A DNA stretch of 59,651 nucleotides. Source: a virus. Lineage: Duplodnaviria; Caudoviricetes. Position 1 is the first letter of the stretch. Every line of letters starts with the position of its first letter. Of the stretch, positions 45,135 through 59,651 are shown piece after piece. The notes below the pieces were generated by a model. That model was not told the DNA's origin. It saw only the letters and a program-made list of their open reading frames with translations, and made no database searches. Position numbers and translations under genes: made by a program. The DNA lies in the IMG/VR virus record IMGVR_UViG_3300042332_000610, positions 1 to 59,651 of that record. One strand, 5' to 3'.

Positions 45135-45500
45135 CTACGTTACCGCCACATCTTGTGTAACACTTATTGTTCCAGTCAAAAGTGTAAATATTTTTCCACT
45201 GGTATTATTTTGAATTTGCAAATCATATAAGTATGATGGATTTATTAACTTCCTACCGCCAGCTGGTTTGATAGTGCAGGAAACATGGTCTCCACCTAGA
45301 ACAGTTGCTGAAGCGTCTGTTGAAGCAGTAATAGAGTTTATAACAGATGCAGATGCACCTCTAGACTCACCAACTACAAATAATGCACTGTAGCTAGAAA
45401 GGTTATCAAACACTTCACCAGTTGAATTTTTGGGGTAAACAAAAAACTCAAAAGTATCACCTGCATAGTAGTTAAAATTATATGTTCCTGGAAATGCCAT
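45135..45500 (-). CDS. Putative BppU-N-like adaptor protein
   Basis: YAGDTF...YLYDLQI...LLTGTISVTQDV; paralog of 50971..51324. Confidence 0.55.
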   Translation of the reverse strand: MAFPGTYNFNYYAGDTFEFFVYPKNSTGEVFDNLSSYSALFVVGESRGASASVINSITASTDASATVLGGDHVSCTIKPAGGRKLINPSYLYDLQIQNNTSGKIFTLLTGTISVTQDVAVT

Positions 45501-45518
45501 TATCAATCACCTTAAATT

Positions 45519-45535: not shown

Positions 45536-45919
45536 TTATATTGAAGAATGTCTTAATTCCCAAACTAGTAAGTTTTCATTCCATACATAATAGTCTCCAT
45601 TAGAAATATCTTCAACTTCTGGCATTGGACTTGGAGGATACCATTGACAAGTATCTTCATTTAATAACCAAGATTCAAATAGTTTTGAAGGAATAAAGGC
45701 ATCTCTTATTTCATCATAATTATATCCTGGACTTGCATAGTTAAAACGAAAGCTTCCATTGTAACTAGTTTGTTTCCAAACTCCATCTAATCCAAGGGAT
45801 GCAATAAATTCTTGACCTACTATTTCGCTATCTGGAAATTCTAAATTACCAAGTGTATTGTTATCTACAACAATTACTTGTTGAACTATATTATCTTCTA
45901 TTCTTGCAAAATGAGCCAT
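45536..45919 (-). CDS. MAHFA-type small protein following a Gly-rich gene (putative fibre chaperone/cap)
   Basis: MAHFA...WKQTSYN...DAFIP...SWLLNEDTCQW; paralog of 54565..54936. Confidence 0.65.
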   Translation of the reverse strand: MAHFARIEDNIVQQVIVVDNNTLGNLEFPDSEIVGQEFIASLGLDGVWKQTSYNGSFRFNYASPGYNYDEIRDAFIPSKLFESWLLNEDTCQWYPPSPMPEVEDISNGDYYVWNENLLVWELRHSSI

Positions 45920-46830
45920 TATGCTAACACCCTTATTCTTGCTATTCCTGAACCGCCAGCACTGCCAGGACGACTATTAGTACCGCCACCACCGCCACCG
46001 CCAGTATTTGCAGTACCAGCAGTTGAAACTACTCCAAACCAATCACTAGATCCACTTCCGCCACCACTTGTGCCTCTGCCATAATCTAAAGAACCTGCAC
46101 CATTTCCACCGCCACCGCCAGCAAGAGAAACTGAACTACCAGTTATAAAAGTAGCAAGTCCAGCACCACCAGCACCAGCACCACCAGCAGCAGCCGCACC
46201 AGCACCACCGCCACCACCGCCTCTATTATATCCGTTTGGATAGTCACCAGTATTACCTTGACCAGATACAGCTTTAATTAAAATCTGTGTTTCGTGGCTA
46301 GATCCACCAGAAGACCCTCCATGATAACCACCCATAGCAGAAAAACCGCCTCCTCCACCGCCAACTGCAACTAAGTATCCAACAGTACCAGGTGCAGAAA
46401 TATATGTATCTCCTCCATAATTAGTATAGCTATTTCCGCCACCACTACCACCACCAATGGTTACAGTGTGCGTACCTGCTGGCAAATAAAAATTAGTTCG
46501 GTAGACGTGCCCACCAGCACCACCACCACCACCTTGAGTAGTGGCTCCACCTCCACCACCAGCAATTAACAATACATCAAGTAGACCACCTTTTGAAAGT
46601 GTAAAAGATCCACTTCCATGCCAGGTATAAACCCTATAGTAAATTCCATTATTTAAAGATGTATCTAAAAATGGTTCTGCTGGTGTAATATTTCCTACAG
46701 TAGCTAAGATATGACTGTTATTTAAAAGTCCACTAAAATTGCGAGATGGATTATTTAAATTTCCATCACCTTGACCAAACCAGCTACTTACTTGGCTTGA
46801 TGAAACTGATCGGTGTAAAGGATTAGCCAT
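45919..46830 (-). CDS. Glycine-rich putative fibre-tip/adhesin protein
   Basis: LLIAGGGGG, GGGGGAGG, ANTGGGGGG, GGSGIARIR. Confidence 0.7.
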   Translation of the reverse strand: MANPLHRSVSSSQVSSWFGQGDGNLNNPSRNFSGLLNNSHILATVGNITPAEPFLDTSLNNGIYYRVYTWHGSGSFTLSKGGLLDVLLIAGGGGGATTQGGGGGAGGHVYRTNFYLPAGTHTVTIGGGSGGGNSYTNYGGDTYISAPGTVGYLVAVGGGGGGFSAMGGYHGGSSGGSSHETQILIKAVSGQGNTGDYPNGYNRGGGGGGAGAAAAGGAGAGGAGLATFITGSSVSLAGGGGGNGAGSLDYGRGTSGGGSGSSDWFGVVSTAGTANTGGGGGGGTNSRPGSAGGSGIARIRVLA

Positions 46831-47192
46831 TACGCAATCCTATTTACATAACCTGAAATCGTAATTACGTTAGTGGTAGCAGCATAGGCAGCAACTGTAT
46901 TGGCAGCACTACCAGTGCCAGTTAAAATTAAACCAGGAACAACTAAAGTTAAACCAGATGTTGCAGGAATAGATAATTTAATATCATTATCAACCGCTGT
47001 TGTTCCACCAAATTGAATTGTTAGTGCTACTGTAACTGATGAAGAATTATATGCATATAACCAAATTTCATCTTCTATTGTTGCTGATGTTCCAGTAGCG
47101 TGAATAGTTGTTCCAGCTGAGGCAGTAGCAGCAACTTTAATTGCTTTACCTTGTGTTGAACCTGAAAGAAGTACTTTAGAATAAGTCGCCAT
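46830..47192 (-). CDS. ~120-aa beta-sandwich adaptor (MATYSK type)
   Basis: Close paralog of 57414..57776 (GTTIH, DEIWLYAYNS, SGYVNRI). Confidence 0.7.
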   Translation of the reverse strand: MATYSKVLLSGSTQGKAIKVAATASAGTTIHATGTSATIEDEIWLYAYNSSSVTVALTIQFGGTTAVDNDIKLSIPATSGLTLVVPGLILTGTGSAANTVAAYAATTNVITISGYVNRIA

Positions 47193-47206
47193 AATTATAT
47201 TATACC

Positions 47207-48997
47207 TTATCCAAAAATCTGCCCTGGCAAAATAAACTGATCAGATTCTCCGTTTATACTATCTAAAGCTGCAGTTGTTGCATACGTTGTAGATGCTGAA
47301 GACTGTGTAAGATACAGGGAAAGATCTAAAGTTCCCCACGAGGCTACTGAACCATCTGTAGTTAGATAATTTCCAGCATTTCCAGCTTGAGATGGTAATG
47401 CATCTATGTTATCTAAGTCTACTTGTGTTGCATATATTGTTGAAGCATTTATTTGGGTTAAATATATAGAAGAAGCAGAAGATTGAGTTAAATAAGGAGT
47501 TAAATCTTGGGCTGCACTTGAAGTTAAAATAATTTCACCATTTGTATCATCATAAGTAGCTGTAATATTTGAATGATTACTATGTGTGAATAATGTAGAT
47601 GCATAGTCTTGTACTTGATCTTCAGTTAACCCGTCAATAATTCCATTTACTTCAATCCAATATGTTCCATCGTAAATAAGAAATGATCCAGTAGATTGCT
47701 TGTACCAAGTATCTCCCAAAACTGGTGCTGCTGGAGCAGTTTCAGAAACAGTAGTTGTAGCACCACCACCACCTTCACCACCCGAAATTAATTGATTTAC
47801 CCAAGCACCTGATGCTGAGTTCCAAACTAAAGATTGTAAATTACTTAATGAATTTATTTCAACATTTGAAAGACTATCTAAAGAATGATTATGAGAAGAT
47901 TCTGAAAGACCTGCTTCTGCTGCCGTTTGATTAATCCATAAATTAGTTGATAAATCATATGCTAATAGTTCATTATTTTGAACAGATGCAGAAATTAAAA
48001 TGTCGTGAATATCTTCTAAATGACCCCCACTTGATGGTCTTACAAATAAAATACCAGTTGTCTGATGACGAATTATAATAATTGCAACTACAATAGCATG
48101 TGTTGGTTTTATGTTTGTTAATTTTCCTGGAACAGTTGGATGAACGTATAAGATATCTCCAGCAGCCCAGGTTTCATCTCCAACGCTTATTGCAGTTGAA
48201 GAAGTTCCTCTTGTATCTAAATTTGATACATATCCAAAGTGTTGAACAAATCCATTAACTCCATTATTAATACTTTCTGTTGCAAGACCCATAAATCTTA
48301 CTTCTCTTACAGATCCATCTGCTACATATGGAGTTACTTGTATTCTTCCACTTGATTCAACTCCAGATGCATACAGGGCAGTTCCTTTTGATATTGTAGA
48401 ACCAGTTGAATTTCTTACTCTGTATACTGACTCTTCTCCAAGGTGTATATGTTTTGTGGATGATAGTCCAAGATTTAATGTACCTTCAACACTGTCCCAT
48501 CCAAGTAATCCAGTTACTGGAGTAATATTTGCAGTTGTATCAAATTGAATAAAATCTGGGGATGAAATAGAATCAATAGATACTAAAGATCCACTAGTAC
48601 TTAAATTAATAACATTATTTATATCGTCATAAACTGCTGTAATATTTGTAGTACTAGCACTTGTAAATAAAGGGGCAACATAATCTTGAACTTGTTCTTG
48701 TGAAAGACCTTCAATTACTCCATTTACTTCTACCCAATAAGTTCCATCATAAATATAAAATTCACCAGTATCATTTTTATACCAAGAATCCCCGATTTCT
48801 GAAGATTCTGGTTCTGTTGTACTAACAGTGGTAGTACCACCACCGCCACCACCTGCACCAAGGACTGACCAAGCTCCTGCTTGGTAAATCTTTGCAACGG
48901 ATGCTGAAGTATTAAAGTATAGTTCTCCCTCGGATCCAACTGTAGGATCTGAAGGTAGATTAACTATCTTTAAAGTACTTAAAAATTTCTTTGCCAT
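47207..48997 (-). CDS. Putative fibre protein with duplicated GDxWY...YDGTYW module
   Basis: Two internal copies of TTTVS..P...GDxWYK..TG.F.IYDGTYW.EVNG.I.GL...QVQDY; YLTQxSAS repeats. Confidence 0.7.
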   Translation of the reverse strand: MAKKFLSTLKIVNLPSDPTVGSEGELYFNTSASVAKIYQAGAWSVLGAGGGGGGTTTVSTTEPESSEIGDSWYKNDTGEFYIYDGTYWVEVNGVIEGLSQEQVQDYVAPLFTSASTTNITAVYDDINNVINLSTSGSLVSIDSISSPDFIQFDTTANITPVTGLLGWDSVEGTLNLGLSSTKHIHLGEESVYRVRNSTGSTISKGTALYASGVESSGRIQVTPYVADGSVREVRFMGLATESINNGVNGFVQHFGYVSNLDTRGTSSTAISVGDETWAAGDILYVHPTVPGKLTNIKPTHAIVVAIIIIRHQTTGILFVRPSSGGHLEDIHDILISASVQNNELLAYDLSTNLWINQTAAEAGLSESSHNHSLDSLSNVEINSLSNLQSLVWNSASGAWVNQLISGGEGGGGATTTVSETAPAAPVLGDTWYKQSTGSFLIYDGTYWIEVNGIIDGLTEDQVQDYASTLFTHSNHSNITATYDDTNGEIILTSSAAQDLTPYLTQSSASSIYLTQINASTIYATQVDLDNIDALPSQAGNAGNYLTTDGSVASWGTLDLSLYLTQSSASTTYATTAALDSINGESDQFILPGQIFG

Positions 48998-49016
48998 TTT
49001 TTCCTTCTAAAAATGA

Positions 49017-49040
49017 GGGGCTGGGGTTTATTCCAGCCCC
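49017..49040 (-). terminator. Hairpin/terminator after 49058..50479
   Basis: 8-bp stem ggggctgg/ccagcccc followed by TCATTTTT on the minus strand. Confidence 0.65.
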
Positions 49041-49057
49041 CCACATTATATTATACT

Positions 49058-50479
49058 TTAGCCAATTACTACAACACGATAAGTGTCAGCAGAAATTGTT
49101 GAAGCACTATTGATTTTAATTGTTACAGCAGATGTTGATGTATGTTGTACATCTACTTCTACCTGCGAATAATCAGCAGCAACTTCATATACTTGAACTG
49201 TCACATCCTTGGTTGCAAGGTTATGTGTAACTGTCCAAGTGCATACTCCACCAGTTGATGTTAATGAGGTATTTCCAGTTGCATACTTTCTTGGGAACCC
49301 ATCAGCTACAAGTGCTGTTTCTAAATTAGCCTTGTCTACTGCTAGACCTCCTACCTTTGTAAGGTAAGATGCAGAAGCGGCAAGAGTTGCATCAATTGAT
49401 CCTGAGATAATTGAAATTGAATCGCTACCAGTTAGGTAATCATCAATTTCAGCATCTACTGCAGTATCAAAATCAGTAACATCACTTGCAACGTGTGTAT
49501 GACCTTGTAAAGAAATAGTTGTTACACTACCCGATAGACCAGCCTTCCAAACGTCAGCACTTTCATCCCAAATAAGTTCTGCATTGGTTGAATCTCCACG
49601 CTCAATCTCAATACCAGCATTTACTGCAGGTGTTCCAGTAACATTACTATTAAGGGTAACTAAGTTATCCTCAACTAGCAAAGTTTCTGTATTTAGCGTT
49701 GTTACACTACCACTTACAGTTAGATTTCCACCTACTATAAGATTTCCATCAATAGTTACATCATCTGGAAGACCAATCGTAACTGCTCCAGCAGATGCTG
49801 AAACTGTTATCTGATTAGGTGTTTCTAAAAGAGATGTAACACCAGTATTTTGAATTGTAAGAGTTGAACCTTCACCACCTGAACCAGTTACACTGATACC
49901 TGCACCAGATGCACTTGCACCTGCTACATAGTCACCAGTTGTATCTGTACCAAGAGCGACTGAATCTGCTACAATATCTGCTGTAATAGTCACGTCAGAA
50001 GTTCCGTCAAAGCTTACGCTTCCACTTAGGCTTCCTCCTAGACTGATTGTTCTAGTAGTTTCAAGAGATGTTGCAGTATCTGCATTACCAGTTAAATCAC
50101 CAGTTACATTAACGTGAATGTTATCTGGAAGGCTTAATGTAACAGATCCTGAAGAAGCACTTGCAATAACTTCATTAGCTGTTCCAGCAAGACTTACAAC
50201 ACCTGTGTTAGAAACAGTTAAGCTATTAGCACCATCGTTATATGTTAAATCAACACCATAACCTGCATCAAGTAAGTCATTTACTGCATCACCAATGAAT
50301 TCGGTAGACCCAACGGCTTCCCATGCTGATCCAGTATATACTTTTAGTGTGTTGTCAACAGTGTTAAAATAAACCTGACCAGCAACTCCAGTACCTGGAT
50401 CTGTAGCCAAATTATGAATAACACCATTACGCAATTCATTACTATTTAAATCAATATTTGTTAAAAATTTTCTAGACAT
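49058..50479 (-). CDS. Putative major fibre/shaft protein
   Basis: LTGNADTATSLETTRTISLGG, GNLTVSGSVTT, AGIEIERG, C-terminal HNLATKDVTVQVY domain; strong AGGAGGTG RBS and own terminator. Confidence 0.7.
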   Translation of the reverse strand: MSRKFLTNIDLNSNELRNGVIHNLATDPGTGVAGQVYFNTVDNTLKVYTGSAWEAVGSTEFIGDAVNDLLDAGYGVDLTYNDGANSLTVSNTGVVSLAGTANEVIASASSGSVTLSLPDNIHVNVTGDLTGNADTATSLETTRTISLGGSLSGSVSFDGTSDVTITADIVADSVALGTDTTGDYVAGASASGAGISVTGSGGEGSTLTIQNTGVTSLLETPNQITVSASAGAVTIGLPDDVTIDGNLIVGGNLTVSGSVTTLNTETLLVEDNLVTLNSNVTGTPAVNAGIEIERGDSTNAELIWDESADVWKAGLSGSVTTISLQGHTHVASDVTDFDTAVDAEIDDYLTGSDSISIISGSIDATLAASASYLTKVGGLAVDKANLETALVADGFPRKYATGNTSLTSTGGVCTWTVTHNLATKDVTVQVYEVAADYSQVEVDVQHTSTSAVTIKINSASTISADTYRVVVIG

Positions 50480-50497
50480 ATATATTCACCTCCTTCA

Positions 50498-50971
50498 TTA
50501 CGATAAATACGCCCTTCCCGAAAATGCTCCGACAAAGGTTAGAACTACAGTATTTGAATTTGGATAGTTATATGACCCCTCAACAACTGTTCCTGCTGTA
50601 TCAACTACTGTAATATTGGGAGTAAATCCCAATCCGTGTGTTATGCTCCAGCTTGCAGAAGCAACTTCTTGAATATGAACATACCCAAGCTCTTGACTTC
50701 CTACTAAATCTGTTGGAGTTCCCCATCCAGATTCTGTTTTTGGACCATACAAATTCATATTTATTGTATTTAAGAAAAAATCTCCATTTATTCCAAGGGA
50801 TGAAGATGGTGCACCAACACCATTAAGAAGTCCAGTTCCTCTAGGTCCTTGTGGACCAGAAGTTCCTAGATCTACATTAACTATTTGTTCTGTTAAATTA
50901 ACATCTACATTTGTTTCATTTATAGAAACATTATTATTTATTTGACTAAGTTCTACTTTTACTTCAGGCAT
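50498..50971 (-). CDS. Putative fibre base protein with GPQGPRG motif and C-terminal HxLG domain
   Basis: GPQGPRGT...GAPSSSLGINGDFFLN...LYGPK; WSITHGLG...SGRAYLS. Confidence 0.65.
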   Translation of the reverse strand: MPEVKVELSQINNNVSINETNVDVNLTEQIVNVDLGTSGPQGPRGTGLLNGVGAPSSSLGINGDFFLNTINMNLYGPKTESGWGTPTDLVGSQELGYVHIQEVASASWSITHGLGFTPNITVVDTAGTVVEGSYNYPNSNTVVLTFVGAFSGRAYLS

Positions 50972-51324
50972 TATCTAGTTACCTCTGGAGTTACATTAAA
51001 TGTACCTTCTACCAGTCTATCAACAATGTTAGATGGACTAATTATTTCAAGGTCATATACATGTGTTCCAGTAGGAAATCCAGAAGTTACACTTGCTGAA
51101 ATTAATATATCAATAGTTCCAGCTGATCCACCCAGAGTAATTCCGCTACCAGAAACTAGAGAAACTACTGGATCTGTTGAATAATAAGCTTCTCTTACCT
51201 GAAGTCTTGAGGAGTAGCCAGTTAAATTTACTGGAACTTCATCCAGGGTGTATGTTAGAGTCCTTCTAAAGGTACTACCTTGAGGACAAACAAAGTTTAC
51301 AAGCCCTGGGGTCATGTTGGGCAC
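50971..51324 (-). CDS. Putative BppU-N-like adaptor protein
   Basis: QGSTF...PVNLTGY...VYDLEI...RLVEGTFNVTPEVTR. Confidence 0.65.
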   Translation of the reverse strand: MPNMTPGLVNFVCPQGSTFRRTLTYTLDEVPVNLTGYSSRLQVREAYYSTDPVVSLVSGSGITLGGSAGTIDILISASVTSGFPTGTHVYDLEIISPSNIVDRLVEGTFNVTPEVTR

Positions 51325-51350
51325 TCCTATTTAAATTTTCTTACTTTCTT

Positions 51351-51359
51351 ATTATACCA
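51351..51359 (-). promoter_or_regulatory. Extended -10 promoter TGGTATAAT
   Basis: Intergenic, upstream of the adaptor gene. Confidence 0.5.
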
Positions 51360-51366
51360 AACTATT

Positions 51367-51681
51367 TTATTTCTTATCTGCGATATAAGCTACCAGAACA
51401 TCGTGAATTACTTTTACTTCCCCAGTTAATTGCTTAATATCTGCTTTAATTTCTGATTGATTATCAGCTAAGCATTTTACCTTGTCTGGAATACTTGATC
51501 CACCATTTGGAAATATTTGATGCTCTACACGGTCTAGACGATCTGCTATAGTTCTACCCTTTTCATCTTTACCAAGAATTCTTTCAAATTTTCTTACGGT
51601 TGCATAACCAACGCCTAGAATGGCGGTAAGAGATAAGAACATTTGCCAGTTTTCGACAAACATAGATATTGAATTATTCAC
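51367..51681 (-). CDS. Small membrane protein with coiled coil
   Basis: One N-terminal hydrophobic segment, PNGGSS motif, heptad-like C-terminus. Confidence 0.65.
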   Translation of the reverse strand: MNNSISMFVENWQMFLSLTAILGVGYATVRKFERILGKDEKGRTIADRLDRVEHQIFPNGGSSIPDKVKCLADNQSEIKADIKQLTGEVKVIHDVLVAYIADKK

Positions 51682-51688
51682 GATTTTA

Positions 51689-51727
51689 TGGTATACTCCA
51701 AAGTAAGACTTAATGACAATTATAACA
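51689..51727. promoter_or_regulatory. Face-to-face extended -10 pair: TGGTATACT on + (51689..51697) and TGTTATAAT on - (51719..51727)
   Basis: Both match the motif seen across the window and point at the two divergent flanking genes. Confidence 0.45.
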
Positions 51728-51753
51728 TATAAATAACATAAGGAGATTAATAA

Positions 51754-51975
51754 ATGCCCGAAACTAAAGAAGAAGTTAAGAAAGTATTAAAGATTGCAGA
51801 TCGTTGTGATAAATGTGGTGCTCAAGCATTTGTACTTGCTACTGGAGTTTCGGGGGAATTAATGTTTTGTGGTCATCATTATCACAAATATGAATATGCA
51901 ATTACTCAATGGGCTTACAAAATTGTTAATGAATTAGATACTATTAATGAAAAGTCTGCAAGTAGTAATATTTAA
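51754..51975 (+). CDS. Small plus-strand zinc-binding protein
   Basis: AAGGAG RBS; DRCDKCGAQA...LMFCGHH. Confidence 0.75.
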   Translation: MPETKEEVKKVLKIADRCDKCGAQAFVLATGVSGELMFCGHHYHKYEYAITQWAYKIVNELDTINEKSASSNI

Positions 51976-52296
51976 TTAAGGCTTTGGATATTTTGCTTTT
52001 ACCGCTAAACAAGCAGCAATGTATGCATCAATTTGTTCTTGATCATTTTTAACAATACCATCTAAATAATCTTTAAAATCAGGGTATTCAACAGATCTTG
52101 ATCTTTGATAAGATAGTGCATCGTGTTCTGCTTGAAGTCTTGCTACCTCTGCCAACAAAGTTTCTTCAGAAGGCTTTTCAGTGTCTGTACTTCTCCATTC
52201 AAGACTTTCATAATCATCTCCACTAAGTACCCATTCTGCACCTGGTGCTAAAGATGTCAAAGCATCTGGTAATCCAAAAATTCTATTAAAAATCAT
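51976..52296 (-). CDS. Putative tail-fibre assembly chaperone
   Basis: ALTSLAPGAEW...KPSEE...YQRSRSVEYP...VKAKYPKP; follows three fibre-tip paralogs. Confidence 0.65.
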   Translation of the reverse strand: MIFNRIFGLPDALTSLAPGAEWVLSGDDYESLEWRSTDTEKPSEETLLAEVARLQAEHDALSYQRSRSVEYPDFKDYLDGIVKNDQEQIDAYIAACLAVKAKYPKP

Positions 52297-52320
52297 AACT
52301 TCTCCTATTTATATTATACA

Positions 52321-52869
52321 TCATTGTGCAATCTCAGTAACTGTTAAAATACTTCTTCCCTGAGTTGAATAGTTTTGAGAAGCATTATTATCTTGTGATC
52401 TATTAATAAAAAAGTTTCCAGATCTTGTTTTAACTCTAAGAGAATATAGTCTAGAAGATGCAGAAGAATTTGTCTCTGTCCAATGACCTGAAAAGGTATT
52501 TAATAGATTATTGTCGCCTGAGGTTCCATATGTTTGCTTCCAGGCATCTCCAATATTAAATGTACTGACCATTCCAGTAGATTCTCCAGTATACATACTG
52601 TTTGAATCTTTAAATGGTGCACACCATGCAACCAAGTCTGCATTGTTTTGTACGCCCTGCAATTGCCATTGAACTAATATTAAAGAATTTGATAGTTTTG
52701 GTACAAAAGTAATTGACATTGGTGTAGTTCCATCTGTTACAGTTGTCCAAGATGTTGGTGAAGACATTATTGCACTCGAAGTTAATCTTACTGTTTTTAC
52801 TTGTACTACTGGATTAAATGGACTACCAGCCGTACTTTCCCATGTATCAAATCTTAGTGTTGAAGCCAT
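52321..52869 (-). CDS. Fibre-tip beta-sandwich paralog 3
   Basis: VVQV...ITFVPKLSNSLILV...LTVTEIAQ; start moved to ATG 52869, 6 nt after TATAAT. Confidence 0.7.
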   Translation of the reverse strand: MASTLRFDTWESTAGSPFNPVVQVKTVRLTSSAIMSSPTSWTTVTDGTTPMSITFVPKLSNSLILVQWQLQGVQNNADLVAWCAPFKDSNSMYTGESTGMVSTFNIGDAWKQTYGTSGDNNLLNTFSGHWTETNSSASSRLYSLRVKTRSGNFFINRSQDNNASQNYSTQGRSILTVTEIAQ

Positions 52870-52885
52870 TATATTATTATACCTC

Positions 52886-53467
52886 TCATTGTGCAATCTC
52901 CCAAATAACTCCTGTTGAAACTGAAACTTCATAATCATCTTGTCCAGCACTACCTTGTGCCCTATTTAAATAAAATGTATATGCTGTTCCTCCAGCACTT
53001 CTTACTGCTGGTGCAAATGTTGCTTCAGCCGTGCTTCCTGAATTACAAAAATATTGCATAAATCTATTTTGTGGAGTACTATTCTGATCTGTATCATAGG
53101 TTGATTGCATAAAGCCAGACCATCTTGAATTTCCAGCAATAGAGTTATACCCAGTTTCTCCAGATGTTGTTATTAGCGAACCGCCTTTGTGAATTAAAAA
53201 TACATTGTCGTGATGAAATTCTCCATTTATCATCCATTGCATCATTAAAAGACTATTTGAAAATTTTGGAGTAATTGTTAAGTTTAAATCTGTCACAGTT
53301 GTTCCGTTACCTGAAGTAGCAGATGAGTATGTTGTCCTTGCTTCAGTTCTTACTTTTTGTACTTGAACAACACTTCCTGGAGCATATAATTTATGTCCAG
53401 CAGGTATTGTAATAGTATTACTATTTACTGTTAAGCCTTTTAATTGACCAACACTTAATTCGCTCAT
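52886..53467 (-). CDS. Fibre-tip beta-sandwich paralog 2
   Basis: GSVVQVQ...LTITPKFSNSLL...VIWEIAQ. Confidence 0.7.
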   Translation of the reverse strand: MSELSVGQLKGLTVNSNTITIPAGHKLYAPGSVVQVQKVRTEARTTYSSATSGNGTTVTDLNLTITPKFSNSLLMMQWMINGEFHHDNVFLIHKGGSLITTSGETGYNSIAGNSRWSGFMQSTYDTDQNSTPQNRFMQYFCNSGSTAEATFAPAVRSAGGTAYTFYLNRAQGSAGQDDYEVSVSTGVIWEIAQ

Positions 53468-53964
53468 AATGTTTTTATCTCCATAATTCTAAGGGTTGAT
53501 GTATTGCTTACTGCACCATTAGCTGGATCCCAAACTTTTCTGTTAAACTGATGACTATATGATGCGTGGGGGGATGCCTGAATAGATATTGTTTTTGCTG
53601 TAGTTCCCCAACTATTATGAACATATGTTAAATCTACTGGAGAATATGCTTGATGATAATGCTGACCAATATACCTAGTGTATACAAAGTCATCCCCAAC
53701 TTTAAAATATGCTGTCCACAGATGCCAGTCATTTGTTCCTGTATTTGTACAACTTATATTTGTAGATATTACAATTTTTGATGAAGCATTTATTGGAGTA
53801 AATGATGTTGACATTAATGTTGTTAATCCAGTATAGTTTATAATATCTGTACTTGTTACCTGAACAATTTGTAATGCACCTACTCCAAGCAGGTCAGTCT
53901 GTGCTGTTGACATAGTTTTTGAGCCAGAAAGGTCTTGAATTGTACCAACTTTTAATGTACTCAT
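53464..53964 (-). CDS. Fibre-tip beta-sandwich paralog 1
   Basis: MSTLKVGTIQ...GALQIVQ...FTPINASSKIVI...LRIMEI; TAATG coupling to the upstream gene. Confidence 0.7.
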   Translation of the reverse strand: MSTLKVGTIQDLSGSKTMSTAQTDLLGVGALQIVQVTSTDIINYTGLTTLMSTSFTPINASSKIVISTNISCTNTGTNDWHLWTAYFKVGDDFVYTRYIGQHYHQAYSPVDLTYVHNSWGTTAKTISIQASPHASYSHQFNRKVWDPANGAVSNTSTLRIMEIKTL

Positions 53965-54503
53965 TATACAACGCTCCAAGCAGATCCGTCAGGAATTGTA
54001 ACAGTTACTCCATCAGCAATTGTAATTGGTCCTGCGGTAACTCCATTATACCCTGAAGGAAGTGTATAATTTGTATTTATTGTTTTTAAATTTAATCTCA
54101 TAAATACATCATCTGAACTTCCTAACTGTACCCAACCAGATCCACTATATGTTTTTAATAATGGTGATGTTCCAGATGAATCAATCCACATATCTCCAGT
54201 AGCAACACCAGTTGGGGATGCAGATGTATATGGAATTAATTTTTCATACTGAGCAGAAGCAGATGTCTGTGTAAGATAGGTTGTAGAAGCAGAGGACCTA
54301 GTTAAGTAAGTTGTTGAAGCAGATGCTTGTGTTAAATAGTTTGTAGAGGCAGACAGTTGACTTAAATATGTAGTCTGTAGTACGGCTTCTTCAAGATATC
54401 CAAAACCTGCATCTTCTCCTGATCTTTTCCAAACATTTCCATCCCAATAATATCCTTGATATAAATCATTAATTTCTGGATCAAGAGGAAATAAAGTAGC
54501 CAT
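53964..54503 (-). CDS. Fibre anchor/linker protein with four 11-aa YLxxxSASxx repeats
   Basis: YLSQLSASTN, YLTQASASTT, YLTRSSASTT, YLTQTSASAQ; GDMWIDSS; ends GPITIADGVTVTIPDGSAWSVV. Confidence 0.7.
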   Translation of the reverse strand: MATLFPLDPEINDLYQGYYWDGNVWKRSGEDAGFGYLEEAVLQTTYLSQLSASTNYLTQASASTTYLTRSSASTTYLTQTSASAQYEKLIPYTSASPTGVATGDMWIDSSGTSPLLKTYSGSGWVQLGSSDDVFMRLNLKTINTNYTLPSGYNGVTAGPITIADGVTVTIPDGSAWSVV

Positions 54504-54564
54504 AATATTATAATTATACCATTTTAATTTTGTTTAATATTATATTTAATAGATAGGATTGATA

Positions 54565-54936
54565 TTAGGAAGCTGTTTCTTCAGGAGTCATTAATTCCCA
54601 ATCTATTAAATCTTCATTCCAAACATAATATGATCCCTCTGGAACTTCACTTGGATAAGGGACTGGAGATTGCCATTGGCAAACAGTTTCATCTAATATC
54701 CAGGAATTAAATGGTTTTGGTGGAATAAAAGCATCAAGATCTAAATCATATGAATACCCTATACCAGCATAGTTCTTTCTAGTATTTCCATTATATGAGG
54801 TACGAATACAAGTTTGATTTCTAAAATTACCATACCAGATTTCTGGGGATAATTCTTCAATTAATTCTGTTTCATCAATGCCAACAATAACTTCAGTTAC
54901 AATGTTGTTTTCATCTAAAAATGCATAATGTGCCAT
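54565..54936 (-). CDS. MAHYA-type small protein following a Gly-rich gene
   Basis: Paralog of 45536..45919; TGATATAAT 6 nt before the ATG. Confidence 0.7.
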   Translation of the reverse strand: MAHYAFLDENNIVTEVIVGIDETELIEELSPEIWYGNFRNQTCIRTSYNGNTRKNYAGIGYSYDLDLDAFIPPKPFNSWILDETVCQWQSPVPYPSEVPEGSYYVWNEDLIDWELMTPEETAS

Positions 54937-54982
54937 AAATATATTATATCAGATTTGTTTTAGAATGTCTAAAAGTTTGCTA

Positions 54983-55705
54983 TTATGCTACAAAAGTTCC
55001 GTTTGTTGTAAATGTATGATAAGTAAATCCGCCACCAGAAGATACAGTTCCACCTGTTCCTCGTTGTGTACCTGAGTAACGTACTATAACAATGCCACCT
55101 GTACCAGACTGTTGGGAACCACCACCATGACCATATCCTGATGCTGTAGAACCGCCACCATTGTTTGAACCACCTGTACCACCAATGGCATAAGTAACTC
55201 CTAGTGATTTCCAGTTAGTTCCTGGTCCACCTGCACCACCACTAAACTGGTTTGTGCTTGTGCCTACACCAGCAGAACCACCGCCACCACCTGAAGCACC
55301 ACTAACCGCTGCTTGGAAACCACCAGTTCCACCTGCATAACCTTGTCCAGCAGTACCTTGACCAACTGCACTACCATGGTTTCCAGAACCACCAGAGCCA
55401 CCAGTAGTACCACCAGTTCCACCACCAATAGCGGTTAAAGTAAAACCAGTTGTGTTACTACCGTTAGAACTGCCAACTCCAGCAGCACCAACAACAAAGG
55501 CATAACTGTTTCGTGCATTTACTGTTTGCACACCCTGCAGTAAACCACCAGCACCACTAGCAGCACCATTGCCAACAGAACTACCACCACCAGCAACTAA
55601 TAAATAATCAATTTCGTAAGCCACTCCTGGAGATGAATCAAAAGCCCTGCTGACCTTTGGCATTCCCTGACTAATGCTTGACTTATTAAAAAACTTAACA
55701 GCCAT
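54983..55705 (-). CDS. Glycine-rich putative fibre-tip/adhesin protein
   Basis: IDYLLVAGGG, GAGGLLQG, GGIVIVRY, FTYHTFTTNGTF. Confidence 0.7.
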   Translation of the reverse strand: MAVKFFNKSSISQGMPKVSRAFDSSPGVAYEIDYLLVAGGGSSVGNGAASGAGGLLQGVQTVNARNSYAFVVGAAGVGSSNGSNTTGFTLTAIGGGTGGTTGGSGGSGNHGSAVGQGTAGQGYAGGTGGFQAAVSGASGGGGGSAGVGTSTNQFSGGAGGPGTNWKSLGVTYAIGGTGGSNNGGGSTASGYGHGGGSQQSGTGGIVIVRYSGTQRGTGGTVSSGGGFTYHTFTTNGTFVA

Positions 55706-56034
55706 TAAGAAATCTCCGCACCAAATATTCCAAACGATGTACTTGCACTTGAAGCATAAATAGTTACCACATCAGTAGCAGAAAGAGTAATGCCAAGGGT
55801 AAGAGCGGTTGTGTCATTAGCGAGAAGGGTAACATCGTAAGCAATATAGTGCTGATTTGCTAATGTTGCACCTAATGGACGAATAGCAATACGATAAGAT
55901 GCAGAAGTAGCAGCACGATTGGCTACAGTCATGGTTGAAACTACTGCTTGTTTGCCAGAGCCTACCGTGTAGATGTCTGTAGCTGTTGTAGCAGCAGGTG
56001 CACTTTGTGCAAGTACTTTATATGTTAATGCCAT
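55705..56034 (-). CDS. ~110-aa beta-sandwich adaptor (MALTYKVLAQ type)
   Basis: YKVLAQSAP...IYTV...VSTMTVANR...LGITL...FGAEIS. Confidence 0.7.
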   Translation of the reverse strand: MALTYKVLAQSAPAATTATDIYTVGSGKQAVVSTMTVANRAATSASYRIAIRPLGATLANQHYIAYDVTLLANDTTALTLGITLSATDVVTIYASSASTSFGIFGAEIS

Positions 56035-56035
56035 T

Positions 56036-56515
56036 TTATCCTCCCATCAATAAAAACGGATGTACTGTATTTTGTTCTATTATACCAGGTATAGAAGCAG
56101 ATGTTGCATATAAAGATAGGTCTAGAATTCCCCAAGATGCTACTGATCCACTTGTAGTTAGATATTTTCCATCATTTCCTGTTTGGGATGGTAGTGCATC
56201 TATATTATCTAAATCTGTTTGTGTTGCATAAATTGTCGAGGCAGAAGATGCTGTAAGATATTCAGAATAATCTGTTGGGGCTCCAGATATTTCTACCCAA
56301 TATACAGAATCATACATAAATAATTCATTTGTATCTGTATCAAACCATAGTTGTCCTTCTCCAGGAGAAGCTGGGGGATTAGAAGATATTGAAATGCTAG
56401 GAGTGAATTCATCTACATATTCAGTAGTTGCATATCCAGTTAAATCTGGAGTACCAGAAACTAGGGGAAGCCAATTTATTCCATCACTTATATATGCTTT
56501 TTTAGCATTTGGCAT
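56036..56515 (-). CDS. Fibre anchor/linker protein
   Basis: PGEGQLWFDT, YATQTDLDNIDALPSQTGN, ends VHPFLLMGG. Confidence 0.7.
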   Translation of the reverse strand: MPNAKKAYISDGINWLPLVSGTPDLTGYATTEYVDEFTPSISISSNPPASPGEGQLWFDTDTNELFMYDSVYWVEISGAPTDYSEYLTASSASTIYATQTDLDNIDALPSQTGNDGKYLTTSGSVASWGILDLSLYATSASIPGIIEQNTVHPFLLMGG

Positions 56516-56601
56516 AATTTAATCAGCCTCCTTTTTTATATTTAATTATATCATCTTAGTTATATTGTATTAGTAAAAGTTATTTAATTAGTAATATTTA
56601 A

Positions 56602-57414
56602 CTATCTAACAAATATCCAAGCTGTGTGATCTGTAGTAGTTCCATCATTGCTATAAATTCTTGCAGAATCATCTCTTGCTAAATTACCTCTCCAGGTATA
56701 TGCTATGGTATTATCAACTCTTGCAGCAATACCACCAGTTGACTCTTGAGATATTGGCGTTGAAGCAATTCTTGCACCATCATTAATTAAGCTATAGTTA
56801 AACATAAGAGTGTTTGAACTAAAGGAAGAGCTACCATTTGTCATTGAATCTCCAGAAGCTCCTATAATTGAAGAAACATCACTAACGTATGAAGTATTGT
56901 TTGCTCTTGCAAATCTATTTAAAAATGTATCTTGACTACTTAACCTATATCCTTTATATCTAATAGATCCATTAAAATTTTCTCTAATCATCATATCTTG
57001 AAATGAGTATGATGTAAATGCAGGAAGCCTAAAATTAGCTTTATTAGATAAAGAGTTTGCTACAGATATATTTAAATTATTACCTGATGCTGCAGTAAAC
57101 CAGTTTGTTCCAGTACCATAATCTCCCTCAAGCCAGGTAGTTATATCTCCAGTAAAATTTGTAACACAAAATGCTAACAACCATCCACCACCAAGAGTAT
57201 TCATATCGCACCAGACTTGATGCTTTGTTGAGTCTCCAGATGGTAGTTGTATGTAGTATGCTCCATCATCTACTACACCTTCAGTATTTTTTAAAAACAA
57301 TGCACTTGGTGCTGGATTATCAATTGTCCCAAATGGTATGGACTCTCTAATTATTTTTGTAGACCCATGCCAATTAGAAACTTTACTTCCTACAAAAGTT
57401 CTATTTCTAAACAT
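56602..57414 (-). CDS. Fibrinogen-like (xCDxxxxGGGW) domain protein, putative carbohydrate-binding tip
   Basis: GTIDNPAPSA...DGAYYI...QVWCDMNTLGGGWLL...WIFVR. Confidence 0.75.
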   Translation of the reverse strand: MFRNRTFVGSKVSNWHGSTKIIRESIPFGTIDNPAPSALFLKNTEGVVDDGAYYIQLPSGDSTKHQVWCDMNTLGGGWLLAFCVTNFTGDITTWLEGDYGTGTNWFTAASGNNLNISVANSLSNKANFRLPAFTSYSFQDMMIRENFNGSIRYKGYRLSSQDTFLNRFARANNTSYVSDVSSIIGASGDSMTNGSSSFSSNTLMFNYSLINDGARIASTPISQESTGGIAARVDNTIAYTWRGNLARDDSARIYSNDGTTTDHTAWIFVR

Positions 57415-57776
57415 TAGGTAATCCTATTTACATAACCTGACAAAGTTATAACGTTTGCAGATGATGCATATGCATATACTGTTGTTGATGCTGAACCAGT
57501 TCCTTTTAGCAATAGTCCAGGAAGTACTAACACTAGTCCAGATTGTGAAGGAATTGATACTTTTATATCGTTATCTGGTGAAGATGTTCCAGCGTGTTGA
57601 ACTGTTAATATTGAAGATGTTGAGGCTGAGTTATAAGCATACAACCAAATCTCATCTATTGTTGAAGCAGATGTGGTAGTTGAGTGAATTGTTGTTCCAG
57701 TAGATGATGTTGCTACAACTTTTATTGGAGCACCATTTGTACTTACTGATAAAAATTCTTTTGTATATGTAGCCAT
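57414..57776 (-). CDS. ~120-aa beta-sandwich adaptor (MATYTK type)
   Basis: Close paralog of 46830..47192; TATAAT 7 nt before the ATG. Confidence 0.7.
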   Translation of the reverse strand: MATYTKEFLSVSTNGAPIKVVATSSTGTTIHSTTTSASTIDEIWLYAYNSASTSSILTVQHAGTSSPDNDIKVSIPSQSGLVLVLPGLLLKGTGSASTTVYAYASSANVITLSGYVNRIT

Positions 57777-57802
57777 ATTATATATTATACCTCATTTTTA
57801 TT

Positions 57803-58375
57803 TTATCCCATAAACATAGATGAAGCAATTATTGCTTGTGGATCATCTACTGCAGAACCTAATTGAACCCAGGAAGATCCGTTATATGTTTTTAAAGCTG
57901 GTGGACTTGTTGAAGAATCTACCCATAAGTCTCCAGTTGCTGGAGTTGATGGAGTAGAAGAGGAATATGGAATTAATTTTTCATATTGAGTAGATGCTGA
58001 TGATTGCGTAAGATAAAGACTTAAATCTAAAGTTCCCCAACTACTTACAGATCCAGAAGTAGTTAAATATTTTCCACCATTTCCATTTTGAGAAGGAAGA
58101 GTAGCAGATTCTGGGATATTTGAAAAATAGTTATTATCTCCATCCATTACTTTATTTGTTAGTATTTGATATCCAGAGGCTGTTGCATAAGTTATTTCTT
58201 CAATTACCTCGTTTGAATCTACCCAAATAAATCCTGGCTCGTGATAGTCTGGCTCTGTTGCTGAATAAGTAAAAGGCTTCCAATTCTCACCAATAATATT
58301 CCAAGACTCTCCATCAAAAGCATAATCTTGAAATTGTTGTCCAACAGAAGCGGATAGTGGAAAAATTGTAGCCAT
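57803..58375 (-). CDS. Fibre anchor/linker protein (mosaic)
   Basis: MATIFP..., LPSQNGNGGKYLTT, YEKLIPY, GDLWVDSS, ends DDPQAIIASSMFMG. Confidence 0.7.
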   Translation of the reverse strand: MATIFPLSASVGQQFQDYAFDGESWNIIGENWKPFTYSATEPDYHEPGFIWVDSNEVIEEITYATASGYQILTNKVMDGDNNYFSNIPESATLPSQNGNGGKYLTTSGSVSSWGTLDLSLYLTQSSASTQYEKLIPYSSSTPSTPATGDLWVDSSTSPPALKTYNGSSWVQLGSAVDDPQAIIASSMFMG

Positions 58376-58419
58376 AGTATCTTAATTATATCATTATATG
58401 TATTATGTTAATAAGGTTA

Positions 58420-59259
58420 TTATGAGAATGTTACTGTTCCTGTGCCAGCAGTAATACTGGTAACTTTAAATCCACCAGAAGGTGATGCAGTTGTTGCTGT
58501 TAATCCAGAAGTAGTTACTGTGTAAGCATCTGGATATTTTAAGATTATAATTCCTGAACCTCCATTACCATTAGCCCCACCACCACCAGAACCTGAGTTA
58601 GCTGTTGCATTTGGAGATGCTGGAAAACCAGAACGATATCCGTTATCTAGCCTTCCTCCTCCTCCTGCATATCCTAAGCTTGTGCCAGAAATAGAACTTA
58701 AAATTCCGTTACCACCATTACCAGCAACTCCACTCACTCCATTAGATCCAGCTGTTCCTGCTCCACCACCACCACCTGCTGCATCATCATTTCCTGCAGA
58801 TCTTGCCCCACCTTGATTACCTTGACCAGCAGTTCCTGGTGCGTTATTTGGAGCAGTTCCACCACCACCAGTACCTCCTTGTCCTCCACCAGAACCACCT
58901 GAAGATCCTGAAGATCCAGCACCACCACCAGCACCTCCGCCAGCAATAGTTGTTAGTCCAATACCTGTTGTATTATTTCCATTTCCACCTATTGCCCAAG
59001 GACCATCAAATCTATTTGATGTAGAACCCGATGGTCCTCCTGCACCAATAGTAATTGCATAAGAGCTTGTAGCTAAAGAAGTAGATCCTTGAAGCAAGCC
59101 TCCAGCACCACCACCTGCGAACTGTGGACTGCTTCCTCCGTGTCCTCCACCGCCACCTCCAGCAGCTATAAGATACTGAACACTAAGTGGTGGACGACTA
59201 CTATTTTTTCTTGTACCAAGAACTCCAAGAGTTCCGCTAACACTATTTAAAAATGGCAT
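58420..59259 (-). CDS. Glycine-rich putative fibre-tip/adhesin protein
   Basis: VQYLIAAGGGGG, GGGAGGLL, GGSGIIILKYP, TAGTGTVTFS. Confidence 0.7.
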   Translation of the reverse strand: MPFLNSVSGTLGVLGTRKNSSRPPLSVQYLIAAGGGGGGHGGSSPQFAGGGAGGLLQGSTSLATSSYAITIGAGGPSGSTSNRFDGPWAIGGNGNNTTGIGLTTIAGGGAGGGAGSSGSSGGSGGGQGGTGGGGTAPNNAPGTAGQGNQGGARSAGNDDAAGGGGGAGTAGSNGVSGVAGNGGNGILSSISGTSLGYAGGGGRLDNGYRSGFPASPNATANSGSGGGGANGNGGSGIIILKYPDAYTVTTSGLTATTASPSGGFKVTSITAGTGTVTFS

Positions 59260-59267
59260 ACAATCTC

Positions 59268-59651
59268 CTAGATATTTAAATTAGCACTTGCAATTAAGAC
59301 ATTTGATGCTGCCAATATTAATGTAAAGTTAAATATATCAATTTTTCCAGCAGAACTTGTTGGTGTTGGTGCTGATCCGCCAACCCATCTAATTGTTTGA
59401 GATGATCCATTTAGATTTATGGTTGTTGGTATATATCCAGTTGAACCTTGTGTAATTAAAAATGACATAGTAATAGATTTAGAAGTAGTTGTTGGAACAT
59501 TTGTTAAACTTATTGTAAAGTTGGCAGTTGGTGCAACTGTAGCATAATGTATTGCTCCATCATTATAATTTGCTGTCATTACATTGGTAGAAAATGAATT
59601 ACTTACAACCGTTTCTCTAACTTCTGCAACATCTAAAATTCCAGGAATAGA
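59268..59651 (-). CDS. Partial fibre linker protein; frame is open to the right edge
   Basis: Upstream of the ORF-track start the frame reads SIPGILDVAEVRETVVSNSFSTNV with no stop; ITQGSTGY...IRWVGGSAPT...IDIFNF. Confidence 0.65.
   Translation of the reverse strand, partial: SIPGILDVAEVRETVVSNSFSTNVMTANYNDGAIHYATVAPTANFTISLTNVPTTTSKSITMSFLITQGSTGYIPTTINLNGSSQTIRWVGGSAPTPTSSAGKIDIFNFTLILAASNVLIASANLNI

Follow-up and report, generated by a model that had tools for sequence, protein, structure and literature searches.

Fibre genes of an uncultured siphovirus-like phage suggest a serial shaft, adaptor and tip joint of at least two types

How might one phage particle carry several receptor-binding tips and hold each of them on its own fibre? 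The question is raised by an array of fibre genes at about 43–59.6 kb of the virus record IMGVR_UViG_3300042332_000610 (Caudoviricetes), a complete IMG/VR record of 59,651 bp (the window in what follows; estimated 56% complete, GC about 35%, genes nearly all on the minus strand). A preliminary description of this DNA had noticed a recurring order of anchor, small adaptor, tip and optional small gene, and had proposed that short terminal peptides dock into cognate adaptors. The order is present in the window, the peptides that it quoted were all found on the minus strand where it had placed them, and the same pairings recur in about 160 other loci. The reading that we favour, with a probability of about 60%, is that the array encodes a serial, non-covalent shaft–adaptor–tip joint of at least two orthogonal types. 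Indeed, comparison of the sequences strongly supports a 'code' in which distinct C-terminal peptides (plugs) of the shafts pair exclusively with distinct adaptor families.

Three modules of the window, here A, B and D, contain such a joint (genes are named by their first coordinate; aa, amino acids; the first residues of a tip are called its head):

57803..58375, minus strand: module A shaft ('anchor'), 190 aa, ending in a divergent type-1 plug, ...DDPQAIIASSMFMG
57414..57776, minus strand: module A type-1 adaptor, 120 aa, MATY(S/T)K; phrog_30535, E 1.1e-34, residues 1–120 against profile positions 1–124 of 125
56602..57414, minus strand: module A tip, 270 aa, type-1-like head GSKVSNWHG, fibrinogen-like lectin-type body
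56036..56515, minus strand: module B shaft, 159 aa, type-2 plug ...HPFLLMGG
55705..56034, minus strand: module B type-2 adaptor, 109 aa; N-terminal 102 positions of phrog_1276 (325 aa)
54983..55705, minus strand: module B tip, 240 aa, 30% Gly, type-2 head (MAVKFFNKSSISQG...); phrog_2295, E 2e-9
54565..54936, minus strand: small phrog_7759 protein, candidate tip chaperone, 123 aa, E 1e-37
47207..48997, minus strand: module D shaft, 596 aa, canonical type-1 plug ...ESDQFILPGQIFG; phrog_9729 tail fiber
46830..47192, minus strand: module D type-1 adaptor, 120 aa, MATY(S/T)K; phrog_30535, E 3.1e-32
45919..46830, minus strand: module D tip, 303 aa, type-1 head MANPLHRSVSSSQVSSWFG including SSQVSSWFG, Gly-rich PF21722 body
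45536..45919, minus strand: small phrog_7759 protein, candidate tip chaperone, 127 aa, E 4e-34

In all three modules the adaptor and tip genes overlap by 1 nucleotide (nt), and the gaps between shaft and adaptor are 26 nt (A), 1 nt (B) and 14 nt (D). The shafts 57803, 47207 and 56036 have fibre-type repeat blocks in common with one another and with a fourth shaft, 53964, which is described below. As had been claimed, DQFILPGQIFG of 47207 and the end of 57803 each stand before a MATY(S/T)K adaptor, the two adaptors being 66% identical over 119 aa (E 4e-35), and HPFLLMGG of 56036 stands before another adaptor (55705) and a Gly-rich tip. The claim that SxVSxWxG-type heads are joined to unlike bodies also holds. 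The tip at 45919–46830 matches PF21722 Gly_rich_2 at 61.5 bits (cut-off 24.3). The tip at 56602–57414 matches NCBIfam NF040941 (fibrinogen-like YCDxxxxGGGW) at 36.3 bits (cut-off 30) and Pfam Fibrinogen_C at 21.5 bits, just under the cut-off of 22 and over residues 46–81 only; weak hits in the PDB to intelectin, XEEL and ficolin (E 9e-4 to 0.02) fall on the same N-terminal part. The tip at 54983–55705 has no Pfam hit at E<=0.1, and its head region aligns with tips of type-2 loci (L083, L142).

Does the end of the shaft co-vary with the next gene in other phages? The type-1 adaptor was found in at least 588 IMG/VR loci, of which the best 80 were fetched and the adaptor located by script in 78, and the type-2 adaptor in 264 loci, of which 80 were fetched. 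With the type-1 plug searched for as [ILVFP][ILV]xxx[IVMLT][FY][GSNTA] at the C-terminus, the pattern was present in 73 of the 81 open reading frames (ORFs) that end -10 to +45 nt before the type-1 adaptor in the 78 loci, and in 6 of the 1963 other ORFs of at least 60 aa on both strands of the same loci, three of these six looking like true plugs. The consensus is DxDQxILxxQVFG, with ends of the form ...DxDQxILxxQ[VI]F[GS]. When the longest upstream ORF of each locus is classified, type 1 gives 70 type-1 plugs, no type-2 plug, seven other endings and one locus without such an ORF, and type 2 (80 loci) gives 64 type-2 plugs (...FLLMG[AG]-like), no type-1 plug, five other endings and 11 loci without such an ORF. 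There are thus 0 crossings between plug type and adaptor type among 134 classified pairs. The result is not one of repeated sampling of close relatives: after the adaptors had been collapsed at 90% identity into 102 clusters, type 1 has its own plug in 44, the plug of the other type in 0, another ending in 3 and no upstream ORF in 1, and the corresponding figures for type 2 are 44, 0, 2 and 4. The proposal that the terminal motif varies with the next gene family is therefore borne out well beyond the window, and the association in the loci fetched is strict, not the random assortment of motifs and downstream families that the preliminary description had named as refuting it.

Contigs that carry both types (L027, L083, L096, L098, L116 and L117), like the window itself, keep for each adaptor its own plug. 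Furthermore, in an independent collection of contigs from metagenome-assembled genomes (MAGs), 13 of 14 upstream ORFs have, as judged by eye, plug-1-like ends, with adaptors down to 37–49% identity; the MAG labels of that collection range over many phyla and cannot be relied on where phage contigs have been binned. If a type-1 joint is taken as an upstream ORF whose end reads hydrophobic pair, xxx, [IVM][FY] and one further residue, at most 45 nt from the adaptor start, and a type-2 joint as an upstream ORF ending ...FLLMG[AG]-like directly before a 109-aa adaptor, then 47207 takes part in the former and 56036, with its 1-nt gap, in the latter. Among the 255 ORFs of at least 40 aa on both strands of the window, the two C-terminal patterns match 47207, 56036 and one antisense ORF of 46 aa inside the tape-measure gene. 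The end of 57803 is a divergent variant of plug 1 that is one residue longer and unmatched by the plug-1 pattern, and relatives of this shaft in two other loci (L030, L032) end ...DDAQLIIAIQVFG.

A third small adaptor, about 100 aa long and starting MAxTSKAL[AF]R, occurs in four contigs with distinct heads (MGI[SN]VFPAP). The ends upstream of it are hydrophobic in three of four cases (...LILMGAL, and ...IMQIMQAY twice), the end in L102, ...KEIKQQLI, not being hydrophobic. Loci of this adaptor (L099, L102, L134, for example at 1747–2049, L137 and L027) share contigs with type-2 or type-1 modules, and ...IAQIMGAY is also among the upstream ends listed for it. At the level of sequence there are at least two mutually exclusive combinations of plug, adaptor and head, with hints of a third in other contigs.

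Is it the peptide or the DNA that is conserved at the junction? The plug has 13 conserved residues, and at conserved positions synonymous variation is free (Q-4, CAA 28 and CAG 29; F-2, TTT 23 and TTC 38; L-7, six codons; I-8, three codons), which indicates that selection acts on the peptide. The stop-to-start spacers vary in length and frame across loci (1–15 nt in most, 9 nt in many), and such spacers together with the synonymous codons mean that neither read-through nor a purely nucleotide-level signal explains the plug. Fusion of shaft and adaptor by read-through or frameshifting was ruled out on the window gaps of 14, 26 and 1 nt and on the frame, which varies elsewhere. A tRNA or recoding signal was likewise ruled out, a search for tRNA genes in the window having found none. 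The frequent GGA-TAA/TAG-GA context may double as a ribosome-binding site.

What stands on either side of the adaptor is far more variable. Plug-bearing proteins span 42–1213 aa, and very short ones, of 42–86 aa, occur in L128, L134, L137, L102 and L163. Eleven pairs of loci have type-1 adaptors of 90% identity or more, and in six of these pairs no similarity between the shafts could be detected; counts of tip relatedness among those pairs are underestimates, as the SEG filter masks similarity between Gly-rich bodies. Heads are RRxVSSSQVSxW-like in type 1 and MA[VI]xxFxxSS-like in type 2, and the tip bodies are Gly-rich (26–39% Gly) behind both adaptor types, accompanied by several non-Gly families. 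One non-Gly family stands behind type-1 (L019, L043, L052) and type-2 adaptors (L151, L156–L162): when L019, L043 and L052 are compared with L151, L157 and L159, the sequences are homologous from about residue 28 onwards, and the heads in front of it are different for the two adaptor types. A LamG-like body family (L025, L030 and L064 versus L149) shows the same pattern of a shared body with a head that follows the adaptor. In one locus (L030:4363-6119) two tip genes that share a head come after a single type-1 adaptor, a non-Gly one of 258 aa and a Gly-rich one of 281 aa, which suggests alternative or simultaneous tips on one adaptor.

Adaptor and tip can also be found in one chain. The 25 listed longer relatives of adaptor 1 include an adaptor followed by a head-like peptide and a PF21722 body (P0128, P0130), an adaptor followed by a head and a different repeat body (P0129, P0131), tandem double adaptors, and adaptors with a domain inserted after the first strand. 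The same three kinds are found among the 10 listed for adaptor 2, with fusions in P0149, P0151 and P0154 and insertions in P0150 and P0158. The adaptor–head–tip fusions speak for one physical unit of adaptor and tip, with the C-terminus of the adaptor next to the tip head. Tandem jelly-rolls or Thr/Ser/Val-rich insertions of 90–270 aa are seen in P0124, P0125, P0127, P0137, P0141, P0147, P0150 and P0158, the insertion site after the first strand being the same place in both adaptor families.

The adaptors themselves appear to be small jelly-rolls. The adaptor 1 family comprises at least 1680 protein clusters at E<=0.001 among 1718 candidates, nearly all of 120 aa, with a mean column identity of 82% in a 16-row sample. 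No Pfam or NCBIfam family was found for either adaptor, and the PHROG matches of the adaptors are labelled 'unknown function'. In a sequence search of the PDB, the adaptor-1 profile retrieved PapE only, at a non-significant E of 0.082, and the adaptor-2 profile had no hit; a search of the ESM Atlas returned unnamed viral clusters only. Adaptor 2 is modelled as an 8-strand jelly-roll with a mean predicted local distance difference test score (pLDDT) of 92.3, all five models reaching 89–92, and adaptor 1 as a 9-strand all-beta jelly-roll with pLDDT 85 in one of five AlphaFold2 (AF2) models. In VIA-align, the adaptor 1 model matches Ena1B (7a02; Z 9.0, root-mean-square deviation (rmsd) 2.7, 95 aligned) and the KHP40 cement protein (Z 6.7), and Foldseek adds the BclA C-terminal domain, IBDV VP2, the Sf6 needle knob, Pgp3, C1q and TNF-family ligands at E about 1e-3. 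The best folds for adaptor 2 are a nucleoplasmin-like domain (Z 9.8), the KHP40 trimeric cement protein (7dou; Z 9.6, rmsd 2.8, 102 aligned), the HFTV1 turret (Z 9.4) and Ena1B (Z 8.6). TNF/C1q-like knobs (BclA, C1q, TNF-family ligands) are matched by adaptor 1 only, and sequence identity in these fold matches is 7–18%. The likeness to Ena subunits, to the KHP40 cement protein and, for adaptor 1, to TNF/C1q-like knobs is one of predicted fold class alone, from which neither function nor membership can be read. A search of BFVD with the adaptor-2 model gave 90 matches at E<=0.001, mostly phage proteins of 100–120 aa; a few bear the label virion structural protein (S-TIM5, MaMV-DC, S-SCSM1), and one match is part of a 380-aa 'tail fiber-like protein' of S-CAM1. 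The models of the two adaptors match overlapping sets of PDB chains, and both families have insertion variants after the first strand; an hhalign comparison of their profiles is collinear over 93 columns and not significant (probability 0.5%, E 0.12).

Do the Gly-rich tips have a further partner? The two phrog_7759 proteins of the window (45536 and 54565) are 47% identical, and in the fetched loci a phrog_7759 gene lies directly after 41 of 81 Gly-rich tips as against 7 of 56 non-Gly tips, a count that leaves out five tips too near the end of a locus. The family has no Pfam or NCBIfam assignment, its sole PDB sequence hit is a ribosomal protein at E 1.5, and it has no detectable similarity to any solved chain. 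From its genomic association, it is probably a folding chaperone of Gly-rich tips. A profile built from 43 Gly-rich tips has a match to the tail fibre of Pam3 (7yfw/7ypx) at E 1e-5, with a strong compositional bias, over profile positions 68–254 and chain residues 74–275, ending in a GGxGGxGIvIvxY motif; a single Gly-rich tip sequence gave no PDB hit at E<=1. Gly-rich proteins of 317–594 aa in L104, L127, L128 and L166–L169 (for example L166:4888-5859) start with a fibre-type motif, MPIDFPSGPT..GQ.Y.Y....W.YNG, so that the Gly-rich domain is also found fused to an attachment end of its own, without an adaptor.

Two cultured phages carry parts of this arrangement. In the 31-kb siphovirus phiPsal1 of Pontimonas (MG835450, L163), the tape measure and a 'putative tail fiber' are followed by a type-2 module, and by this gene order the module sits where siphovirus receptor-binding proteins normally lie. 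An 86-aa protein (L163:4734-4994) ends ...GGGLDNALMLMGG (...ALMLMGG) and holds little beyond an N-terminal fibre-attachment-type motif and the plug. It is followed by an adaptor-2 homologue, annotated as 'putative virion structural protein' by similarity to a protein of Pelagibacter phage HTVC010P, by a 298-aa Gly-rich ORF with a type-2-like head and a TTG start (L163:5349-6245), and by a phrog_7759-like gene. The GenBank entry is without that Gly-rich ORF and has instead, in another frame, the Val-rich phiPsal1_022 (L163:5536-6009), which looks like a wrong-frame call. The second phage, PA-SR01 of Pseudanabaena (MT234670: 76467-79861, L170), has an adaptor-1-like gene (41% identity over 76% of the query) followed, with stop and start overlapping, by a gene for a 1013-aa protein.

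Together, these observations can be drawn into the following model. The region would encode tail fibres, or other virion appendages, each assembled as a non-covalent series of polypeptides. The shaft, of trimeric-fibre type and of any length, would end in a short C-terminal plug peptide, and the product of the next gene downstream, a small and very conserved jelly-roll adaptor, would hold both the shaft plug and the tip head. The tip gene would be translationally coupled to the adaptor gene by the 1-nt overlap. Each type of adaptor would have its own kind of head, made up of the first ~25 residues of the tip, and the tip body would be freely exchangeable between Pam3-gp24-like TNF-like/glycine-rich, fibrinogen-like lectin, LamG-like and other domains. 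Binding of plug to adaptor, the place of the adaptor between shaft and tip in the virion, and the stoichiometry are what we infer here from sequence comparison. With type 1 present twice and type 2 once in the window, a single virion could bear several different tips, each directed to its own shaft.

Several points weigh against this model. No evidence of plug–adaptor binding was obtained, and a complex prediction with three copies of adaptor 1 and three shaft tails (last 36 residues; 42-row alignments) gave no answer (score 0.01) and counts neither way. Four of the five AF2 models of adaptor 1 are poor (pLDDT 34–60), and the fold matches at Z 7–10 are only slightly above the background of the tool (best Z 7–8), so that they indicate a common oligomer-prone jelly-roll and nothing more; the 'virion structural protein' labels are database names, not tests. 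Heads are far less conserved than plugs, and the strict head patterns match about half of the adaptor clusters; the claim for the heads therefore rests on the alignments of shared bodies and on the fusions. Eleven of the 80 type-2 loci have no upstream ORF in range and in PA-SR01 the upstream gene is on the other strand, from which it follows that the adaptor does not always need a plug-bearing neighbour. On the adaptor tree, plug, head and adaptor variants cluster: the classes of plug, head and tip need 13 changes, where shuffled labels need 27.1 and none of 200 shuffles came down to 13. This fits co-evolution but is also compatible with simple co-inheritance, and the mutual information of plug positions with adaptor columns, over 64 pairs, showed lineage-bound signals only. 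A fusion of shaft and adaptor is absent from the 25 and 10 longer relatives listed, in a search that was weak, and its absence fits, weakly, a need for a free C-terminus. Finally, the array lies upstream of the head genes, with ~20 kb between it and the genes for tape measure and distal tail, and attachment of the appendage to the tail, and not to head or neck, is assumed.

What else could the small gene be? A small gene directly after a fibre gene is in the classical position of a fibre chaperone, and the adaptor could accordingly be a non-structural shaft chaperone (of the lambda Tfa or T4 gp38/gp57 type) that binds the shaft's conserved end peptide, helps the shaft to fold or trimerize and is absent from the virion, with the tips being independent short fibres. 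The position directly after the fibre gene, the high conservation (82%) and the lack of a shaft–adaptor fusion among the longer relatives listed all fit such a role. Yet adaptor–head–tip fusions in both families put the adaptor in one chain with a receptor-binding body, the chaperone slot after the tip is already held by phrog_7759, which tracks Gly-rich tips, and the tip head tracks the adaptor type, which would not be required of an unrelated shaft chaperone; structural relatives in phages are, moreover, named 'virion structural protein', though these are labels only. On balance we consider a shaft chaperone unlikely.

A further possibility is that adaptor and tip make up a self-contained appendage that docks elsewhere, on the baseplate or on the side of another fibre, while the plug serves another partner. 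The adaptor–tip pairs without a plug-bearing upstream gene would be expected on that account, as would plug-bearing proteins as small as 42–86 aa that have an N-terminal attachment-type domain, but 0 crossings in 134 pairs are hard to explain without a direct or complex-mediated relationship between plug and adaptor, and the spacing from shaft to adaptor is tight, at 1–15 nt in most loci; this makes independent docking improbable. The conserved ends might instead be boundaries of recombination or expression at the level of DNA, with no docking function: the last Gly codon is mostly GGA, followed by TAA/TAG and a G/A-rich spacer that could be the ribosome-binding site of the adaptor, the gap is 9 nt in many loci, and cassettes have clearly been exchanged at these borders. 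Thirteen conserved residues with free synonymous variation, conservation that holds to adaptors 37–49% identical in other collections, and two peptides that pair strictly with two different proteins make a pure DNA boundary very improbable. The serial joint of shaft, adaptor and tip thus remains the reading that we prefer. A bolder version of it, which we regard as doubtful, is that aquatic phages share orthogonal peptide-to-jelly-roll connectors as an addressing code, in which one jelly-roll would capture both plug and head, possibly by strand or groove complementation as in the pilus-like Ena fibres, a swap of ~25 residues would re-address any tip to any shaft, and several receptor-binding tips, each sorted independently, would be on show on one virion.

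How do the other genes of the array relate to these modules? A further module, C, and the remaining fibre-associated genes are:

59268..59651, minus strand: contig-cut ORF (C-terminal part)
58420..59259, minus strand: Gly-rich PF21722 protein (Pfam, 55.3 bits)
53964..54503, minus strand: module C shaft, 179 aa, conserved C-terminal domain ending ...TIPDGSAWSVV
52321..53979, minus strand: module C, three consecutive tip genes (53464–53979, 52886–53467, 52321–52950), 171–209 aa
51976..52296, minus strand: phrog_9114 protein, always after the module C triplet, 106 aa
49058..51324, minus strand: fibre-associated genes between modules, for a 473-aa fibre-like, a 157-aa and a 117-aa phrog_1084 protein

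Module C is built differently. Residues ~130–179 of its shaft match the C-termini of fibre PHROGs 5342, 34255 and 36881, and the C-terminal domain also matches internal parts of phrog_7459 and phrog_29506. Two of the tips, 52886 and 52321, align with the last ~170 positions of phrog_6942 ('tail fiber protein'), and 52886 aligns also with the C-terminal part of phrog_7459. Homologues that have shaft domain and tip in one chain (PHROG 7459, 6942) point to a conserved split at a domain boundary, and TIPDGSAWSVV, which had been taken for a short peptide plug, is better read as the end of that conserved C-terminal domain. Of the 'three paralogs' said to follow 53964, two are related, 52886 and 52321 (30% identity, E 2e-9); 53464 has no BLAST or phmmer hit. 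An alignment-based search with tip 52886 found six relatives, and five further loci were examined (L164, L166–L169). All five have a shaft ending ...IP[TA]GS[SA]WS[IV]V, three tips of 164–203 aa and a protein of ~105 aa, and 14 of their 15 triplet tips end ...EIAQ. The three tips may form a heterotrimer or be alternatives to one another.

The order of the 473-aa, 157-aa and phrog_1084 genes is kept in L020, L030 and L032. The phrog_1084 proteins of the window, at 50971–51324 and 45135–45506 (both minus; 117 and 123 aa), adjoin fibre genes, 41 ORFs of this family are present in the fetched loci, and one of the two weakly matches phrog_3304, 'L-shaped tail fiber protein assembly'. A protein of 104 aa whose N-terminal segment is hydrophobic (51367–51681, minus) is kept beside fibre genes in L030 and L032, and the region's only plus-strand gene (51754–51975) encodes a protein of 73 aa with CxxC...CGHH spacing. 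ORF 59268, which the contig end cuts, has relatives of 247–352 aa, one of which precedes a Gly-rich gene in L020, and is without similarity to adaptor 1. Elsewhere in the window, PHROG matches identify a portal, prohead protease, major head protein, ribonucleotide reductase, glycosyltransferase, 2506-aa tape-measure protein, 1494-aa minor tail protein, DNA polymerase, helicase, primase, SSB, UvsX-like recombinase and Cas4-like nuclease, and megablast against cultured phages gave no DNA match. The source is a large siphovirus-like phage without a close cultured relative, and the tape-measure protein (18757–26277, minus), at 2506 aa, implies an unusually long non-contractile tail.

How new would such a joint be? 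That a docking element carries an exchangeable receptor-binding domain is a principle well known from characterized phages. SP6/K1-5 with its gp37 adaptor, the anchor-branch depolymerases of Klebsiella phages and the lactococcal BppU-BppL pair are multi-receptor-binding-protein docking systems; in principle like the modules here, they match a conserved docking element to exchangeable receptor-binding proteins that have a conserved peptide or domain at the N-terminus, and a virion can in this way have several such proteins, which recombination can exchange. They differ in that other domain families are used and the docking element is part of the tail or of another receptor-binding protein, whereas here a free-standing jelly-roll of 109–120 aa would stand between shaft peptide and tip head, in at least two orthogonal versions within one genome. 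Long tail fibres of the T4/S16 type have the gp36–gp37 joint and the gp38 polyglycine adhesin, and are likewise a series of non-covalent polypeptides with a glycine-rich adhesin at the shaft end, the order being shaft, small proteins, tip and helper. No sequence relationship to them was found, S16 gp38 not being among the PDB matches of the tip profile at E<=1, and to our knowledge they have neither a small jelly-roll adaptor nor a conserved C-terminal plug. In Pam3, a Pseudanabaena myophage, gp24 has a helical dock at its N-terminus together with a TNF-like and a glycine-rich domain; the latter binds the receptor and has been likened to the S16 gp38 adhesin, and gp25 is the chaperone (PMC9608196). 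The modules described here resemble it in the profile match of their Gly-rich tips to gp24 and in the small gene after the tip. By the same account, gp24 is a single-protein fibre set on the baseplate by its own helical bundle (PMC9608196), whereas here there is a short head with a separate adaptor and shaft. A literature search, with subscription journals and supplements outside its scope, found no description of this joint, which does not prove that there is none.

Fibres determine which hosts uncultured aquatic phages can infect, yet hardly any of these fibres are annotated. A rule leading from plug to adaptor to head would help annotators to find the true receptor-binding genes, such as the one mis-called in phiPsal1, and would explain the movement of unrelated binding domains between phages; the serial joint would let tips move by exchange of short ends. 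Furthermore, it would give a testable model for the sorting of several tips onto different shafts of one particle. If the addressing code is true, phage particles of several specificities could be built with plug, adaptor and head as portable parts that do not cross with one another.

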